Part shown: piece after piece, positions 623 to 34,334 of the stretch
Position numbering within the stretch: the stretch's first letter is position 1
Layout: every line of letters starts with the position of its first letter
NCBI RefSeq assembly: GCF_004765795.1
Contig: NZ_SBIV01000003.1
Location: 124,001 to 188,000, forward strand
From: Halorussus marinus
GTDB taxonomy: Archaea; Halobacteriota; Halobacteria; Halobacteriales; Haladaptataceae
Direction of reading: 5' to 3'
DNA: 64,000 nucleotides
Made by a program: the position numbers and the translations under genes
The notes under the pieces: model-generated
Database searches by the model: none
What the model saw: only the letters and a program-made list of their open reading frames with translations
Told to the model about the DNA's origin: nothing

Positions 623-1684
623 TCAGAACCGCCCCTGTTCGCGAAGCGCGGCGACGACCTCGCGGACGCGCTGGGCGTCGTCTTTCGGGACGACCACCAC
701 TCGGTCGCCGGCGGCCGCGACCACCAGTCCCTCGACGCCGACCGCGCTGACGTGCGCGCCGTCGAGGCCCGCGACCACCGTCTCCTCGGCGTCGATCGTG
801 AGCGCGTCCCCGAGGACCGCGTTGCCGTCGGCGTCGGTCTCGACGACGCGCTCGATCGCGTCCCACGACCCCACGTCGTCCCACTCGAAGTCGGCGGCCA
901 CGACGTAGGCGTCGTCGGTCCGCTCCATCACCGCGTAATCGACGCTGACGGGCTCGACCGCCCGGAACCCTCGCTCGGGATCGCCGTCGTCGAGGGCCTC
1001 GACCAGCGGCGCGAGCGGCGAGTCGCGGGCCGCCCGGAGCAAGGCCTCGGGCGTCCACGCGAACAGCCCGGCGTTCCAGTAACAGCCCGCGGCCACGAGT
1101 CGCTCTGCGGTCTCGGCGTCGGGCTTCTCGCGGAACCGAGCGATCTCGGCGTACTCGCCCCTCGACTCGCCCGGCTCGATGTAGCCGTAGCCGGTCGCTG
1201 GCCGCGTCGGTTCGACGCCGAACGCGACCAACCCCTCCGTTTCGACTGCGGCGCGGGCCGCGGTCCGGGCCGCGCCGGCGAAGCCGTCGCCGACGACGTG
1301 GTCGCTCGGGACACAGAGCACCACGCAGTCGCCGTCCCGATCGGCGGTCGTCTCGCCCTGCTCGCCCGTCTCCGGGGCGGGCCCGTTGCGTTGCTCTCGG
1401 ACCCGGTGGGCGGCGTACGCCAGCGCGGGGCCGGTGTCTTTGGCGTCGGGCTCGACGATGACCCCCGCCCCGGGAACCGCCTCGCGGACGCGGTCTGCGT
1501 GCTCGGCGGTCGTCGAGACGTACACCTCGTCGGCGAAGCCGACGCGCTCGACGGTCCGAGCGAGCAGCGACTCCGACCCGCCGAGCGCGAGGAACTGCTT
1601 CGGCCGATCCGCCCTGCTCGCCGGATAGAGCCGGGTCCCGGTGCCGCCGGCCATCACCACCGCGACGATCGGGCGGGCTACCAC
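623..1684 (-). CDS. manC: Mannose-1-phosphate guanylyltransferase
   Basis: VMAGGTGTRLYPASRADRPKQFL, TGYGYIE, FREKPD, WNAGLF, SVDYAVME, WDDVGSW motifs; GTG start at 1684 overlapping upstream stop. Confidence 0.92.
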   Translation of the reverse strand: MVARPIVAVVMAGGTGTRLYPASRADRPKQFLALGGSESLLARTVERVGFADEVYVSTTAEHADRVREAVPGAGVIVEPDAKDTGPALAYAAHRVREQRNGPAPETGEQGETTADRDGDCVVLCVPSDHVVGDGFAGAARTAARAAVETEGLVAFGVEPTRPATGYGYIEPGESRGEYAEIARFREKPDAETAERLVAAGCYWNAGLFAWTPEALLRAARDSPLAPLVEALDDGDPERGFRAVEPVSVDYAVMERTDDAYVVAADFEWDDVGSWDAIERVVETDADGNAVLGDALTIDAEETVVAGLDGAHVSAVGVEGLVVAAAGDRVVVVPKDDAQRVREVVAALREQGRF

Positions 1685-22886: not shown

Positions 22887-24071
22887 TCAGAAGGGCTGTT
22901 CGGTCTCGCGGGTCGGCTCCTCGGCGGGCGTGACCTCGCTGATCCGGCCGGTCTGCTGGATGACCTCGAACGCGGTCATCAGGTCGGTCCGGGAGATGAG
23001 CCCCGCGAGCTCGCCGTCGTCGTCGACGACGAGGAGCCGGCCGATGCCGTGTTGCTGGATCCGCTCGAACGCGGTCATCGCGTCCTCGTCGGCCCGGATC
23101 GTCTTGAGCTCCCGGGACATCACGTCGGCGACGGTGTAGGCGTCGCGCTCGACCTCGTTGACATCGCGGGCGTCTTCGAGGGTCACCATCCCGACCGGCT
23201 CGCCGCTCTCGATCACGGGGAAGCCGGTGTGGCGCTCGCGAAACATCGCCTCCAGCAGGTCCGAGACCGACGTGTCCGGGGTGACCGCGTCGAGCTCGTC
23301 GACCTCTGTCATGACGTCGCGCACCCGGACGTTGCGAAACGCCGTGCTCATCACGGTCTGTTGGGCCTCGCTGGTCGCGCCGACGTAGATGAAAAACGCG
23401 ATCCCGATGAGAACGATGTTGAACTGGAGCAGTCCGAACAGCCCGAGCAACACCGCAAACAGCTTGCCGACCTCCGCGGCGATCCGGGTCGCGTCGGCGA
23501 ACGGCCGGTTCCGGGCGAGCAGTGCCCGGAGGACCCGCCCGCCGTCCATCGGGAACCCCGGCAGGAGGTTGAACGCCGCGAGCACGAGGTTCATCAGCGC
23601 GAGGTAGCCGAACACGAACCGGACCGTCGGGAGTCCGGTCGGGATCACGAACAGCGCGGCGTACGAGAGCACGCCGAGCGCGATGCTGACCGCGGGGCCC
23701 GCGATGGCGATGGCGAACTCCTCGCGCCACTCCTCGGGCTGGTCGCTGAGTTGCGCGATGCCGCCGAAGATCCAGAGCGTGATCGAGTCGATCGGGAAGC
23801 CGTATCTGATCGCCACCAGCGAGTGGCCGAGTTCGTGAAGCACCACGCCGGCGAACAGCCCGACGGCCGCGACGGCGCCGAGCACCCACTGCGTTCCGTC
23901 GGCGGTGAGCGGGCCGGCGTCCAGATCGAGCGCCCACAGCATGTTCAGGTTCTCGACCCACAGACCCACCTGTGACCCGATGAGCCACGCGAACACCGGG
24001 AGGATGAGGAGAAACGTCAGGTCGAGCTTGATCGGAATGCCGAACGCCCGACCCACTGTGAAACTTCGCAT
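22887..24071 (-). CDS. Site-2 protease (M50) with CBS domains
   Basis: HELGH, AIAGP, FNLLPGFPMDGG; two C-terminal CBS domains. Confidence 0.93.
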   Translation of the reverse strand: MRSFTVGRAFGIPIKLDLTFLLILPVFAWLIGSQVGLWVENLNMLWALDLDAGPLTADGTQWVLGAVAAVGLFAGVVLHELGHSLVAIRYGFPIDSITLWIFGGIAQLSDQPEEWREEFAIAIAGPAVSIALGVLSYAALFVIPTGLPTVRFVFGYLALMNLVLAAFNLLPGFPMDGGRVLRALLARNRPFADATRIAAEVGKLFAVLLGLFGLLQFNIVLIGIAFFIYVGATSEAQQTVMSTAFRNVRVRDVMTEVDELDAVTPDTSVSDLLEAMFRERHTGFPVIESGEPVGMVTLEDARDVNEVERDAYTVADVMSRELKTIRADEDAMTAFERIQQHGIGRLLVVDDDGELAGLISRTDLMTAFEVIQQTGRISEVTPAEEPTRETEQPF

Positions 24072-24252
24072 ACCTGTGGGTTACCGTGGCAGACCCTTAA
24101 CAGTATTTGGTCGCCCGTTCGGGGGCTTCGTGGGACGACAGTCGGCCACCCCGGCGGTCTGTGCCGGCGGTTCGACGGTGGCCCGGGTCGGTCCCGTCCG
24201 GCGACCGTCAACCCAAGTATTCAAGAGGCCCCCGGAGACAGTCACGAACAAC

Positions 24253-25461
24253 GTGGCAGACACCGAGTACTGCAGACGGACGGCGGTCACGGGTCTCTCC
24301 GTGTCTCCGACGGACGCCACACGGCTCCGCGAGCTGGTTTCGGAGTGGAAACGCGGCTGTCAGCTCGCGGTCAACGAGGCGTGGGGTGTCTGTCACACGC
24401 GGAGCGAGGTCCAACAGCTCGCGTACGACGAACTCCGCGAGCACACCGACCTCAGTAGCCAGCACGCGGTGTTGGCGACCCACCGAGCGGCCGAGGCGAT
24501 CAAACGCGCCGGCGAGTCGGGGACCAAACCCGAGTTCACCAGCCCGACCGTCGCGTTCGACACCCGCACGATGACGGTGTTCGAGGACCGCACGGTCAGC
24601 CTCACGACCACCGACGACCGGGTCCGGTGTGACCTCGATCTGCCGGCCGACGGCGGCTACCAGTCCCGATACCTCGACGGCGAGGAGTGGGAGCCCGCAA
24701 AGAGCGCGCTCCGCTACCGCGACGGCGAGTTCGTCTTCCACCTCGGCTTCCGGACGCCCAAGCCCGCCGTCGACCCGCCGACCGAGGGCGCGACCGTGCT
24801 CGGGGTCGATCTGGGCGTCGAGAACCTCGCGGTCACCAGCACCGCCCGGTTTTTCCCCGCGGGCGAACTCTCCCACCGCCGCGAGGAGTTCGAGCGCGTC
24901 CGGGAGTCCCTCGAAGCGACCGGCACCCGGAGCGCGTCCCGGACTCTCCGGCAGGCGGGCTACCGGACCGACCAGTTCGTCACCCATCGGCTCCACGAGA
25001 TCGCCAACGGCATCGTCGAGGAGGCGACGCGCTACGACTGCGAGCTCGTCGCCTTCGGCAAGCTCGCGGAGGTCCACGACCTGCTCCCCGAGGCCGACCC
25101 CTTCCACGAGTGGCTGTTCGAGCGACTCCTCTCGATGGTGGAGTATCGTGCGGCCGCCCGCGACATCGCCGTCGTGGAGGTCAACCCCGAGTACACCAGC
25201 CAGCGGTGCATGGAGTGTGGGTTCACCCACCCGCAGAACCGCGACGTCGAGGCCGGCCACTTCGAGTGTCTCAAATGCGAGGCGTCGGCCAACGACGACT
25301 ACAACGCCGCCAAGAACATCGCGTTCCGGTGCGTGCGACGCGGCCCGCTCTCCTCGCGCGGGCTCGGCGCGGCGGCGTGTGCGCTCCAGTCGGGCGTCGT
25401 GACCCCAGACGACGGGTTCACGCCGTACGCGGAGCTGTCAGACCCGCCGCTGTCGGACTGA
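24253..25461 (+). CDS. tnpB: IS200/IS605-family TnpB homolog, solo, RuvC-II Glu substituted
   Basis: VLGVDLG (RuvC-I), AFGKL in place of xFEDL (RuvC-II), YTSQRCMECG...FECLKC Zn finger, DDYNAAKNI (RuvC-III); no tnpA nearby. Confidence 0.88.
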   Translation: MADTEYCRRTAVTGLSVSPTDATRLRELVSEWKRGCQLAVNEAWGVCHTRSEVQQLAYDELREHTDLSSQHAVLATHRAAEAIKRAGESGTKPEFTSPTVAFDTRTMTVFEDRTVSLTTTDDRVRCDLDLPADGGYQSRYLDGEEWEPAKSALRYRDGEFVFHLGFRTPKPAVDPPTEGATVLGVDLGVENLAVTSTARFFPAGELSHRREEFERVRESLEATGTRSASRTLRQAGYRTDQFVTHRLHEIANGIVEEATRYDCELVAFGKLAEVHDLLPEADPFHEWLFERLLSMVEYRAAARDIAVVEVNPEYTSQRCMECGFTHPQNRDVEAGHFECLKCEASANDDYNAAKNIAFRCVRRGPLSSRGLGAAACALQSGVVTPDDGFTPYAELSDPPLSD

Positions 25462-25515
25462 CGCGCTCGCCGACCGAGCCGACCTTTTAAGCGCTCGCGT
25501 GCGTAGGACATCCGT

Positions 25516-25908
25516 ATGAGCGAGCAAGTCGAGCCGGTGATCCGGCGCGGAGACGACATCGAGTACGAGAACGTCGGCGCGGCCGACGGGATGCGAAAGG
25601 GCGTGCTCGTCGCCGAGGAGCACGGCGCCCCGAACTTCGCGATCCGGCGGTTCGAACTCGACCCCGGCGCGTCGGTCCCCGAGCACACCAACGACGTCGA
25701 ACACGAGCAGTACGTCCTTGCGGGCGAGTACGTCGTGGGGATCAGAGAGCCGTCCGAAGCCGACGGCGAGGAGTACACCGTCAGCGCGGGCGACTCGCTG
25801 CTCATCCCTGCCGGCGCCGTCCACTGGTACAGAAACGAGGGCGACGAGTCCGGGGCCTTCCTCTGTGCAGTTCCGAACGGCGACGACGAGATCGAACTGG
25901 TGGAGTAG
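25516..25908 (+). CDS. Cupin domain protein
   Basis: PEHTNDVEHEQYVLAG...AGDSLLIPAGAVHWY. Confidence 0.9.
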   Translation: MSEQVEPVIRRGDDIEYENVGAADGMRKGVLVAEEHGAPNFAIRRFELDPGASVPEHTNDVEHEQYVLAGEYVVGIREPSEADGEEYTVSAGDSLLIPAGAVHWYRNEGDESGAFLCAVPNGDDEIELVE

Positions 25909-26313: not shown

Positions 26314-28368
26314 GTGTCGAAGCAGGTCCCGCAGGTGGACACGCTGTTCCTCCACGAGCAGTCCGGCGACTACGTCGCGGTCGTGAACCGCGACGGGTCG
26401 CGCGTGTTCCGCGCGAAGCTCGAACTGAAACAGACCGACGCCGGGCCCCGCCCCGGAAAGCTCCGGGTCCAGCGCGGGTCGAGCGAGGAGCTACGCGACC
26501 CGGACCAGTTCGTGGAGATCGCCCGCAGGGCCGACCGCATCCGGATCTCCGAACAGACCCCGTCGTCGAGTCGAACGGAGCTACGGGAGATGCTCGACGG
26601 CTACCAGCTCGACGCCAAGGTCGTCCGGACCTGTCGGCTGTGTGCGTCGAGCGGGCGCTACTCGCCGATCACGAGCGAGACGGCCATCGACGCCGGCGAG
26701 GAGTACATCTGTCCCGACTGCGCCAAAGAGGAGCTAGAGCGTGAGCTCGCGTTCCACGGCGACCTCACCGGGCAGGCCCACGACCGGCTCGAAGACCTCC
26801 TGCTCGAAGTGCAGGACCTCGAACGCATCACGAACCTCCTGAAGGGACAGCTCGACCCCGACCTCACGAAGTTCGACGAGATCAGCGCCAACGTCGAGGA
26901 CGTCGAGACGGTCCCGGTCGACTCGCTCGGGCTCCACCCCGGCGTCCAGAACCTCCTCGAAGACCGCTTCGAGGAGCTGTTGCCCGTCCAGAGTCTGGCG
27001 GTCCAGAACGGCCTCCTCGACGGCGAGGACCAGCTCGTGGTGAGCGCCACCGCGACCGGCAAGACCCTCGTCGGCGAGATGACCGGCCTCGACCGGGTGC
27101 TCGACGGGGAGGGCAAGATGCTGTTTCTGGTGCCGCTGGTCGCGCTGGCCAACCAGAAACACGAGGACTTCGAGGAGGAGTACGGCGACCTCGTGGACGT
27201 GACCATCCGGGTCGGCGCGAGCCGGGTGCGCGACGACGGACAGGCGTTCGACCCGAGCGCGGACGTCATCGTCGGCACCTACGAGGGCGTCGACCACGCG
27301 CTCCGGACGGGTCGGGATCTGGGCGACATCGGGACGGTCGTCATCGACGAGGTCCACACCCTCAAAGAACAGGAGCGGGGCCACCGCCTCGACGGGCTCA
27401 TCGCCCGGCTGAAACACTACTGCGAGACCCGCGCCGAGCGCCGCGAGGCGTACGACGGGGCGCAGTACGTCTACCTCTCGGCGACGGTCGGCAACCCCTC
27501 CGGGCTCGCCGAGTCGCTCCGGGCGAACCTCGTCGAGTACGAGGAGCGGCCGGTCCCGCTCGAACGCCACGTCACCTTCGCCGACGGCCAGGAGAAAGGC
27601 GACATCGAGAACAAACTGGTCAAACGCGAGTTCGACAGCACGTCCTCGCAGGGGTATCGCGGCCAGACCATCATCTTCACCAACTCCCGGCGGCGGTGTC
27701 ACGAGATCTCCCGGAAGCTGGAGTACAGCTCCGCGCCGTACCACGCGGGCCTCGACTACGGCCGTCGGAAGACCGTCGAGCGCCAGTTCGCCGATCAGGA
27801 CCTCGCGGCGGTCGTGACGACCGCGGCGCTGGCGGCCGGGGTCGACTTCCCGGCCTCGCAGGTCGTGTTCGACACCCTCGCGATGGGGATCGAGTGGCTC
27901 TCGGTCCAGGAGTTCCACCAGATGCTCGGGCGAGCGGGCCGGCCGGACTACCACGACCGCGGGAAGGTGTACGTGCTGGTCGAGCCAGACGCCGCCTACC
28001 ACAACAGCATGGAGATGACCGAAGACGAGGTCGCGTTCAAGCTCCTGAAAGGCGAGATGGAGAACGTCCGGACGCTGTACGACGAGAGCGCCGCCGTCGA
28101 GGAGACGCTCGCGAACATCACCGTCGCCGGCACCGAGACCAAGCGGCTCAACGAGCGGATGATCGGCGAGGTGCCGACCAAGCACGCGCTCGGCAAGCTC
28201 CTCGAATACGGCTTCATCGACGGGCTCGAACCCACCGACCTCGGTCGGGTGGTCACCAGCCACTTCCTCGCGCCCGACGAGGCGTTCAAGATCCTCGACG
28301 GCATCCGGAAAGACACCGACCTCTACGAGATCGCGGCCGAACTCGAACTCCACGGCGACGAGGAGTGA
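26314..28368 (+). CDS. Archaeal Ski2-like DEAD/DEAH helicase (COG1202/ASH-Ski2-like)
   Basis: SATATGKT, DEVH, LSAT, QMLGRAGRP; N-terminal CxxC...CPDC. Confidence 0.9.
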   Translation: MSKQVPQVDTLFLHEQSGDYVAVVNRDGSRVFRAKLELKQTDAGPRPGKLRVQRGSSEELRDPDQFVEIARRADRIRISEQTPSSSRTELREMLDGYQLDAKVVRTCRLCASSGRYSPITSETAIDAGEEYICPDCAKEELERELAFHGDLTGQAHDRLEDLLLEVQDLERITNLLKGQLDPDLTKFDEISANVEDVETVPVDSLGLHPGVQNLLEDRFEELLPVQSLAVQNGLLDGEDQLVVSATATGKTLVGEMTGLDRVLDGEGKMLFLVPLVALANQKHEDFEEEYGDLVDVTIRVGASRVRDDGQAFDPSADVIVGTYEGVDHALRTGRDLGDIGTVVIDEVHTLKEQERGHRLDGLIARLKHYCETRAERREAYDGAQYVYLSATVGNPSGLAESLRANLVEYEERPVPLERHVTFADGQEKGDIENKLVKREFDSTSSQGYRGQTIIFTNSRRRCHEISRKLEYSSAPYHAGLDYGRRKTVERQFADQDLAAVVTTAALAAGVDFPASQVVFDTLAMGIEWLSVQEFHQMLGRAGRPDYHDRGKVYVLVEPDAAYHNSMEMTEDEVAFKLLKGEMENVRTLYDESAAVEETLANITVAGTETKRLNERMIGEVPTKHALGKLLEYGFIDGLEPTDLGRVVTSHFLAPDEAFKILDGIRKDTDLYEIAAELELHGDEE

Positions 28369-32318: not shown

Positions 32319-34334
32319 CCCGCGAGGTCCACCACGTCGGCGAAGACCGCGACGCGGTCACGATGGACGACATCCACGCCGAGGACGATCTCGCCGACCA
32401 GATGGAGGGCGCCCTCCTGGAGGGTGACTACGAGGTCGAAGACGGTCCGGGGCCAGCCGACTCCGGTCCGGACACGGTCATCTGTTGTCGGTACTGCGAA
32501 CAAGAGTTCGAACGTATCGTCGACTACGACGACCACGAGTACACCTGCGAGGACCTCCAGCATGCGGTCGCTCGCGAGGAAACTGATAGTGACGACCAAG
32601 AGGACGCGACGGTCGACGACATCAATCGGACGTACTTCATCCGGACCCAGTGGCACGAATTCAAAGCCTACGTGAAGTACGATATCGGCCTCGACGTCTA
32701 CTACGGGTTGAACAGTCTCCAGAAGGAACACGACTTCCGCGACGACGGCGCCCTCACTACCGAATTTGAAGTCCCGGACGAGATCGCCGAGGAGACCGAC
32801 CGCGAACGCTGGGAGTTGGAGTTCTCGTTCTCGGACAGCAAGCTCAAACCGTGGGACGATCAGTCGTTCCGCATTCAGAACGTCCGCGAGTACTCGATCA
32901 AAGTTCATCCCGCAGGTGTCGACGATCACAACGATGCACTTCGGAAAAACGTTCTCGGTGAAACCGCGGTGGCCCGACCTCGAATCAGAAGACGGCTACT
33001 CGAATCCGAGCAACCCCCACGACATCCTCGGCGTCGACGTCACCTTCGACGGGTCGAACCTCGAACCGAATGTGTACCCGAAGCTGTTCTATCACGCACT
33101 GGGTGTGCTCCACGGCCAGCAGGGCAAGAACTGGTCGAACCCGACCTACATCCCCTACGACGATGTCCGACCGGAGAACATCCACCACTCCTCGAACATC
33201 GTCGACGGCGAGCTCTACGTCCGCCTCGACGAGGAGAAGACCGGCCCGCTGTACGCCATTGACGGGCCGATTCATCGCATCTCGATGCTGTTGGCTGACG
33301 AGCGCTCGGGGTACGCGAAGTCGATTCGGGACGATCGCGAGTGTGAGGGCTACTACCACGTCGCGACGATCGGGAGCGATCGCGCGTCCGAGCTGCTCGG
33401 CGGCCACTCGCTCGGCAAGGAATTCAAGCACTATCACGTCAACAACCCTAGCGCTGTCGACGGCGACGGGATGCTCGAACATCCGAAGGTCGGCGTCGCG
33501 CTTCAGAACTCGGTCACCGACCGCACTGTCTACTGGGACGATCTCCGGCGCCTGGAGAAGGAACTCGACGAGGCACTGTTGAACGTCCTTGACTGGGCGG
33601 ACATTCCGCTCCGACCTGACGATCAGTACTACGTCGAGGACGAGGTCTTCGAAGTAACTGGTGAGCGTCGCTTTCGCCAGCTGGCCGTGAACCAGCTCCC
33701 GAGCATCCAGCAGGAGCAGAATGACGACGTGATGCGGGTCGTTCCGAATCTCGCGCCGACCGACGCGGAGGCGCTCGACAAGCTACTGGCCGACGGCGGC
33801 CAGATCTCGCCGGCCGACCTCGCGGCGGATCTCGGACGCCACATCGATACGGTCTACCGGGCGCTGGATCGCCTCGGCGACATCGTCGTCCACGAGTACG
33901 GTGACGTTCGTCTGCGCTCGAAGAACGTCGCACAAGAGATTCTGAAGTACGTCCAGGGCGCGAAGGAGTCGTTCGAAGTCTCGATGTCCGAAGCGGCGGA
34001 CAAGATGGTTCAGGCCGAGCGCGTTGCGGATGGCGACTCTGCGTTCGCACAGTGGCGCCAGACTTACGGCGTCGAGATTGACAGTGACGACGAGGAGGAT
34101 CGCGACACGCTCTCGATGAAGTACACGCCGGAGGACCGGAAAGAGCTCAAGCGAATCCTCCGGTCGGGCGCTCGTCACTGGGCGGAGCTGACCGACAGCG
34201 CGGTGGGACGATTCGCCGTCGAGTTCCGGCCGGATGTTCGACTGGCGGACGGCTCGCGATACAACCCGGTGCTCTGGAAGAATCTGTTTACTCGGACGAA
34301 GGGTCCGAGCCTGTTCAGCCAGACGTTCGGCTGA
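32315..34334 (+). pseudogene. Pleolipovirus-like putative replication protein with C-terminal winged HTH, +1 frameshift at 32945-32949
   Basis: Two overlapping acidic ORFs join at the A5 run (…ALRK|TFSVKPRWPD…); C-terminal LLADGGQISPADLAADLGRHIDTVYRALDRL wHTH. Confidence 0.75.

Follow-up and report, generated by a model that had tools for sequence, protein, structure and literature searches.

A TnpB-like gene retained across a haloarchaeal family and a candidate guide RNA encoded in trans

When a tnpB gene stands alone between two host genes with its RuvC-II catalytic Glu replaced, is it the relic of a transposon or an RNA-guided protein put to use by its host, and, in the latter case, where does its guide come from? 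This question is raised by a locus of Halorussus marinus, a member of a family that we take to be the Haladaptataceae. The locus lies in a window of 64,000 nucleotides, which is the whole stretch of DNA that was analysed. The first-pass annotation of the window had proposed an archaeal equivalent of the TldRs, the nuclease-dead repressors associated with fliC, csrA or oppF (PMC10705468, PMC13622181).

The tnpB gene and its genomic setting

The locus is made up of the following features:
22887..24071, minus strand: M50 peptidase-CBS gene (Pfam), the divergent host flank
24215..24225, plus strand: BRE/TATA-like promoter word AAGTATTCAAG, 38 nt (Halorussus-type genomes) or 35 nt before the start codon
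24253..25461, plus strand: tnpB, GTG start, 402 aa
25516..25908, plus strand: cupin gene (Pfam), the host flank 3' of tnpB
26314-28368: DEAD/DEAH helicase gene, downstream of the cupin gene

Both Pfam PF07282 and PF01385 match the 402-aa protein, and NCBIfam NF040570 does so at 115.7 bits (cut-off 100). The protein comprises the REC/WED, RuvC and zinc finger parts of the TnpB fold, and its AlphaFold2 model (mean pLDDT 75.4, pTM 0.60) has Cas12f and TnpB as best structural matches. The first-pass annotation had rightly read an intact frame with the RuvC-I Asp, zinc finger and RuvC-III Asp (D186, C319/C322/C339/C342 and D349). It had placed the feature at 24253..25515, of which the start holds; tnpB itself ends at 25461, and the remainder is a 54-bp spacer (25462-25515) before the cupin ATG at 25516. 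Its remarks on host-like composition (gene GC 65-71% vs contig 68%) and on the absence of tnpA also stand, the latter both beside the gene and in a PF01797 search of the whole host genome (G000). Nine TnpB-like matches, two of them broken, were found in G000, which also encodes catalytically intact relatives of the 402-aa protein. The clade gene does not show the set of features of a mobile IS1341 element, namely both ends, a cis omegaRNA, an intact D-E-D triad and varied insertion sites.

The distribution of the gene was surveyed in family genomes at least 70% complete, with the best four candidates per genome scored against a clade profile built from 46 proteins (full-length clade members at or above 668 bits, other relatives at or below 566). 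A single tnpB copy without internal stops is present in 34 of 34 family genomes from three genera, and the clade protein is found in none of 367 other genomes of the same order; one family genome that is 62% complete lacks it. No clade protein was found in phages. Identities to the H. marinus protein are 80-89% in Halorussus and 62-70% in Halomicrococcus and Haladaptatus. In quick trees the clade is monophyletic (SH-aLRT 100), nested among active IS1341-type TnpBs, and joins the group that holds L100-L103 (support 96). The tRNA-adjacent pair L128/P0081, which shares C360 and C376 with the clade, had been considered as its sister group, a placement not supported by the quick tree.

By Pfam, the flanking genes code for the M50-CBS peptidase, an SRAP protein, the cupin and the DEAD/DEAH helicase. 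Context counts cover 33 of the 34 family genomes: the M50 gene lies upstream of tnpB in 31 and the cupin gene at most 1.5 kb downstream in 29. A deeper metagenomic clade member with N186, G269 and G349 sits at the same M50/cupin locus. In outgroups, the M50 and cupin genes directly adjoin without tnpB in six of the eight genomes with a cupin match (10 searched). The median pairwise dN/dS of tnpB is 0.152 among 19 Halorussus-type genomes and 0.143 among 13 others, compared with 0.242 for the M50 gene, 0.143 for the cupin gene and 0.116 for 17 active elements. Loss of the transposon context, a fixed host locus and purifying selection, the contextual marks of TldR-type genes, are thus all found in the clade. 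The promoter word AAGTATTCAAG is kept in 33 of 33 family genomes and occurs once in G000, and from its position we infer a leaderless tnpB mRNA. Neither absence or pseudogenization in family relatives nor a neutral dN/dS, both of which would speak against domestication, was seen. Based on these comparisons, the gene is almost certainly a domesticated host gene rather than a decaying relic.

The tnpB-cupin spacer is not conserved. It ranges from 31 to >1300 bp in Halorussus-type genomes, often gaining insertions. In the other two genera it is no longer than a few tens of bases, and tnpB and cupin may be co-transcribed there. In H. marinus, the spacer at 25462..25515 is predicted to hold the cupin promoter.

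Several observations concern other elements of these genomes. Catalytically intact TnpB relatives at L101, L102, L103, L104, L120, L124, L127 and L128 (also L134, L153 and L154) adjoin a whole tRNA gene (Ser, Leu, Ile or Thr). They are scattered over the tree and mostly devoid of the usual left end, and the 15 bases past their right end agree at 11-14 positions with the stretch that follows the T-loop GTTC[AG]A in that tRNA's 3' end; their appearance is that of elements which target or restore tRNAs. An array of seven or more tRNA genes surrounds a tnpB at L004:217-3054, on contig C7 of G000 (57.6% GC), where five TnpB matches and two SRAP-like ones are found. At G000:C5:158928-158984 (minus strand) there is an isolated IS605-type right end with a TTCAC terminus, similar to that of the C11 element; it is probably a PATE. 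Within the window, GC content drops to 57-65% between 30700 and 35000, a segment with small ORFs and a 522-aa ORF (32766-34334), which is possibly an integrated element; two stretches ahead of these ORFs have translations that presumably represent reverse-read tRNA-Pro sequence.

Catalytic site, nucleic-acid-binding regions and C-terminal tail

The protein-coding features, all on the plus strand, are as follows:
24268..24756: REC/WED half (aa 6-168), the nucleic-acid-binding part, largely kept
24808..24810: RuvC-I D186, in GVDLG, present in the H. marinus protein
25057..25059: RuvC-II G269, codon GGC, replacing the catalytic Glu
25060..25128: lid region that follows RuvC-II, more degenerate than any other part
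25186..25191: P312-E313, with P312 at the published shifted-Glu position and E313 one residue off
25207..25278: C4 zinc finger (C319, C322, C339, C342), intact and invariant in the alignment
25297..25299: RuvC-III D349, present in the H. marinus protein, replaced by H/A/G in part of the clade
25330..25461: remnant of the tail that once overlapped the omegaRNA, conserved as protein only, with right end and guide deleted

The RuvC-II motif had been read as AFGKL. Its Gly is genuine, but the Lys is private to the H. marinus genome: residue 270 is Glu in 30 of 33 genomes and Lys, Asp and Gln in one each, and the clade motif is AFGEL. The argument that more than one base change separates the Gly codon from Glu is correct in that GAR to GGC needs two; nevertheless it is weak, since only one of the two is non-synonymous. 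Real evidence for loss of the Glu is the clade-wide fixation of Gly or Ala at position 269 (56 of 56 clade proteins), where 64 of 64 close relatives have Glu. E270 was considered as a shifted catalytic residue and ruled out, as it is an ordinary post-site residue (D/E/N in active relatives, K in H. marinus). D186 is retained in 27/27 Halorussus-like proteins vs 2/29 other clade proteins, most of which have S/A/T/N; the corresponding counts for D349 are 27/27 and 22/29. Counted by genome (n=33), the triad is D/G/D in 21, has lost two residues in eight and all three in four. The clade thus shows stepwise decay, with one and then two catalytic residues lost. The TldR screen required at least two mutated RuvC D-E-D residues (PMC10705468), a loss found in 12 of 33 genomes; H. 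marinus and 20 others have lost one only.

The replacement of Glu by Gly is not in itself proof of inactivity, because Fanzors and some TnpBs use an alternative Glu ~45 residues beyond the Gly (PMC10530073; PMC10691335). The clade protein could accordingly be imagined as a rearranged active nuclease in which E313, 44 residues after G269, substitutes for the lost Glu in the manner of Fanzor and TnpB2; this would apply at least to genera where D186 and D349 are still present. E313 is indeed characteristic of the clade (55/56 proteins vs 3/64 relatives), and D186, D349 and E313 are retained together in H. marinus and in 21 of 33 genomes. However, the published rearranged pattern is ExxxxxxCxxC (10.1101/2023.08.09.552727), and its Glu position is occupied by P312 in 56 of 56 clade proteins, so that no Glu was found at the alternative position. 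E313 is also present in all 29 non-Halorussus-like clade proteins, 27 of which lack D186; in those proteins, at least, it is not there for catalysis. Furthermore, the lid is degenerate: only 4 of 13 invariant residues of the RuvC-II/lid region (aa 263-292) are kept, and pN in Halorussus peaks there. By analogy with an active TnpB that binds without cutting when given a 10-nt guide (PMC13507860), the guide described below would also be too short to support cutting. A rearranged nuclease appears highly improbable on this evidence, and the clade protein has very probably lost DNA cutting. The nuclease-dead-type, domesticated gene proposed for the M50/cupin locus is thus supported on each of its points.

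The regions expected to contact nucleic acids have fared differently from the lid. The REC/WED half retains 57 of the 82 residues that do not vary among active relatives, and of 30 conserved basic positions, 20 carry a basic residue in 85% or more of the clade. S69, Q70, H71, D103 and R105, which are among the REC residues that we take to read the TAM, are invariant both in active relatives and in the clade. Fixed changes in this half include K50R and E150K, and K84 and K150 are new clade-invariant residues. Others arose in the zinc finger and tail (H326, P327, C360, P365, L366 and C376). C360 and C376 (window 25330-25380) are missing from most active relatives, although L128 and P0081 carry both; together with H326, the two cysteines might make up an additional metal or disulfide site, in a part of the AlphaFold2 model that is unreliable (pLDDT <50).

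Active relatives have a left end preceded by a (T)TCAA word. The RNA that overlaps the 3' end of their tnpB has stems that covary, a loop reading GTCAR and, at its end, TTGAC. At the clade loci, an IS right end of the GACAAG type was found at 0 of 24 and of the TTGAY type at 1 of 24, in line with the missing right end noted in the first-pass annotation. The tail stems are 60-68% paired in the clade vs 99% in active elements, and the loop is gone. The synonymous divergence pS of the tail reaches 0.48-0.50 in the clade, whereas in active elements the tail has the lowest value along the gene (0.20); the clade pN is 0.04. Since pS is raised, the stems are broken and the amino acids are conserved, the tail has been kept as protein, not as RNA. 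The model built from the orphan RNA described below has no match at the 3' end of tnpB, and Rfam finds nothing relevant at the gene, having likewise missed the RNAs of active elements. A cis omegaRNA over the 3' end, which the annotation had suggested looking for, is ruled out by the absent right end, the broken stems and the lack of synonymous constraint; the likely guide is a separate gene on contig C8.

A conserved omegaRNA homologue on another contig

G000:C8:168648-168836 (= L294:4649-4837), minus strand, outside the window: omegaRNA-like gene, 189 nt

Scanning the 34 family genomes with a covariance model of active elements' RNAs gave one weak intergenic match away from any tnpB, and its orthologue in G000 is the C8 RNA. 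The gene has NIF3/DUF34 on one side and an MCP gene followed by deoxyhypusine synthase on the other. It is present as a single copy in 34 of 34 family genomes (32 by BLAST, two with a closer query), and also in the 62%-complete genome that lacked tnpB. A model of 35 copies, run with stricter filters on the best 17 candidates per genome, scored 180-221 bits in 21/21 family genomes and 27-66 bits in 7/129 others. Four of these outside matches were inspected; they correspond to three omegaRNA-only mini-elements and one active-element RNA. The RNA was found at none of five outgroup nif3 loci, in two of which nif3 directly adjoins deoxyhypusine synthase. Searches of plasmids gave no C8 RNA, those of viral contigs 11 pattern matches of which none is convincing, and Rfam no family match (best E 3.8). 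Recurring 89-nt weak matches of the RNA model R1 were set aside as ends of another IS605 subfamily.

The C8 RNA has a scaffold homologous to omegaRNAs, a pseudoknot between a loop and the 3' end, and a sharp border between scaffold and guide. The active-element model, built without the C8 RNA, matches 13 of 13 loci, weakly (14-30 bits), and runs in register from stem 1 to the terminal GUAGUUG.C; in the reverse direction, the model of the orphan RNA detects 6 of 7 active-element loci at E <0.01. In the alignment from which the structure was itself derived, 99.1% of 1750 cells in 50 pairs are compatible with pairing, and 14 pairs have two-sided changes, many of which follow one genus split. None of 500 shuffles was as good, and slid controls reached 32-41%. 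The pseudoknot reads GCCAA/TTGGC in 20 copies and GCCGA/TCGGC in 15, one pair being A-U in the former and G-C in the latter; active elements have GTCAA/TTGAC. By itself, the G000 copy does not fold better than shuffled versions (z -0.51).

A TATA-like box, TATTAAAA in 33 copies and TACTAAAA in two, lies 202-210 nt before the scaffold end in 35 of 35 copies. The scaffold is followed by the guide and a T-rich tract, with unrelated sequence beyond, and both stay when the downstream genes change. Altogether, the comparative evidence shows a conserved, structured omegaRNA homologue with predicted promoter and terminator signals, and we infer that it is transcribed. Between the TATA box and the RNA (L294:4838-4860), most Halorussus-type copies have TTCAACTTGAA, which is absent from G000 and the other genera and resembles the TAM and left-end start of the parent element. 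Loci L216 (1410-1810), L218 and L219 (match at 1501-1666, minus strand) are omegaRNA-only mini-elements, consisting of a left end, a promoter-like stretch, an omegaRNA and a right end without tnpB. L216 is the best outside match of the C8 RNA, and its ends are like those of the close active relatives of tnpB; sharing insertions with the family RNA, it may resemble its ancestor.

The guide region is short, with the 7-base consensus ANYACMG in 35 copies: AACACAG in 12, AACACCG in six including G000, and eight other forms. Positions A4, C5, G7 and T9 are invariant in all 35, and positions 2, 3 and 6 vary (10 different 7-mers). The variable positions would fall inside the expected seed. Their variation could mean that the guide has several tolerant targets, that its target moves, or that it has ceased to read DNA. 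Short guides are known from related proteins, as the Efa1 TldR has a 9-nt guide (PMC13622181).

Target searches assumed the ancestral TAM or covered part of the sites. Own-guide matches near tnpB or the RNA locus revealed no conserved target, guide matches with guessed TAMs across G000 gave no convincing site, and the YTCRA or TTCAA plus guide pattern was in no excess over controls family-wide. In promoter windows of G000, AACACCG ranked 129th of 140 permutations, which is high but not outstanding. Among genomes with the same guide, no conserved or guide-covarying sites were detected in the 51 of 60 and 30 of 72 shared sites examined, and no pairing partner of the guide was found inside the RNA. 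Given the fixed REC/WED changes, the TAM may have changed since the ancestral element.

Function, alternatives and relation to known systems

Comparison of the loci indicates that the family ancestor acquired an IS1341-type tnpB in the gap between the M50 and cupin genes; this tnpB lost its IS ends, overlapping omegaRNA and RuvC-II Glu, and has persisted as a host gene. A protein-less omegaRNA, likewise a remnant of that element family, became fixed between nif3 and deoxyhypusine synthase, with promoter and terminator signals of its own. The TnpB-like protein would then load the ~185-nt RNA in trans, and the complex would bind DNA without cutting, through a 7-12-nt guide and a TAM, as suggested by the REC/WED and basic residues that have been retained, the lid that has been lost and the shortness of the guide. 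By analogy with TldRs, it would most likely block transcription at one or several promoters. That the protein binds the C8 RNA is probable. An archaeal TldR-like DNA binder guided in trans is a reading that we favour slightly, and for the protein as a DNA-binding regulator, argued from the TldRs, we likewise see somewhat better than an even chance. In the fullest version, a single transposon family would have supplied both the protein and the guide of an archaeal RNA-guided transcription factor. The two would have been domesticated as unlinked genes, would be core to the host family, and would find targets with a ~7-nt guide that some lineages have re-tuned. This version falls just short of even and is put forward tentatively.

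A neutral transposon relic with a chance mutation has little in its favour beyond the nine TnpB-like matches of G000, two of which are broken; an intact gene in 34/34 genomes of three genera, a dN/dS of ~0.15 and a promoter kept in 33/33 have already refuted it, and its probability is negligible. A more serious, albeit unlikely, alternative is that the protein and RNA do form a complex that is not a promoter-specific repressor, and instead binds many sites with low specificity, binds RNA or incoming mobile DNA, or has a scaffold role with a vestigial guide. Only four guide-region positions are invariant and seed positions vary, the searches found no conserved guide target, and the tail is conserved as protein, both it and the zinc finger having gained invariant residues in the clade, all of which would suit such a complex. 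Nevertheless, REC residues invariant in active relatives stay so in the clade, the target searches were restricted as to TAM or sites, and the guide is devoid of a covarying partner inside the RNA. Somewhat less likely again are two separate domestications, in which the protein either works RNA-free or is a dominant-negative sponge for the omegaRNAs of resident IS1341 elements, and the RNA serves mobile TnpBs or a purpose of its own. The distances of protein and RNA correlate (rho 0.85), which is what shared descent gives, and their co-occurrence traces to one clade and a single event, so it is no independent proof of joint function. As its nearest outside matches are the mini-elements L216, L218 and L219, the RNA need not derive from tnpB's own element, and catalytically intact relatives are present in G000. 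Close active relatives occur, however, in only 2 of 21 family genomes, yet both genes are always retained; 11 of 34 family genomes have no match to the active-element RNA model, a count that shows only a lack of strong matches since this model missed most orphan RNA copies. L216 moreover carries ends of the type found in tnpB's close active relatives, and basic residues are kept in the protein and the pseudoknot in the RNA.

The preferred reading, a DNA-binding protein guided in trans, shares with TldRs (PMC10705468, PMC13622181) direct descent from a transposon TnpB, stepwise RuvC decay, loss of IS ends, a fixed host locus, a short guide and a degenerate lid, which is also poorly conserved in the Efa1 TldR (PMC13622181). 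TldR guides are encoded adjacently (PMC10705468, PMC13565253), whereas the candidate guide of the clade is a separately promoted gene on another contig. The clade also differs in being archaeal and core to a whole family, with an intact zinc finger and C-terminus; no target was found near either gene, and its repressor role is proposed by analogy. As the adjacent guide is missing and two other TldR features are unproven, we do not file the clade as a TldR member.

The parent system is the haloarchaeal IS1341-type TnpB with its sotRNA or omegaRNA (PMC4615843), at 52-56% identity and with the same leaderless start and tail sequence; its RNA has stem 1, stem 2, the pseudoknot and the 3' end in common with the C8 RNA. 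The active elements differ in keeping D-E-D, both ends and the cis RNA, in their patchy, often multi-copy distribution and in their unrelated guides. PATE-derived RNAs, described with the sotRNAs in PMC4615843, resemble the family RNA in being omegaRNA-like sequences without a protein gene, and L216, L218 and L219 are its closest outside matches; unlike them, the family RNA shows neither an IS-type left end nor a right-end hairpin, occupies one fixed locus in single copy, and carries a guide and T tract that are conserved. TnpB2 and Fanzors share the RuvC-II Glu-to-Gly change and a conserved Glu near the zinc finger (PMC10530073, 10.1101/2023.08.09.552727), but the clade Glu misses the pattern by one residue, a DPG motif is absent, and much of the clade has lost the RuvC-I Asp. 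Lastly, dCas12f-sigmaE and other exapted dead TnpB or Cas12f proteins are immobile and inactivated, with a regulatory role shown or proposed (PMC10691335, PMC13472631); these are bacterial, arose via CRISPR Cas12f and are encoded beside their RNA and a partner gene, in contrast with the direct descent of the clade from an IS element.

Full-text searching, whose scope fell short of most subscription papers, found no earlier description of the clade, of its RNA, or of an archaeal case in which a dead TnpB and such an RNA are fixed together throughout a family. Halorussus, Haladaptatus and Halomicrococcus are not among the listed supplementary entries of PMC10705468, and the eight 'halo' rows of its TldR table are, by eye, other TnpB types, several of which look truncated. 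Part 1 of section 11 and Table S5 of PMC10691335 present non-mobile haloarchaeal TnpBs as active or rearranged and name no inactive one.

Standalone omegaRNAs can serve IscB in trans, so a guide acting in trans is not new in itself. The TldR clades characterized in the cited papers are bacterial and have their guide beside the gene. If the proposed pairing is correct, screens that look only beside dead tnpB genes, or that demand two mutated residues, would miss systems with relocated guides. The pairing makes a concrete prediction, with one protein, one 189-nt RNA and one defined guide, in halophiles that are harmless and can be cultured. RNA-guided transcription control would extend to archaea, acting there against TBP/TFB and a different polymerase, and the family would possess a multi-site regulator like ordinary ones, with its specificity stored in RNA.
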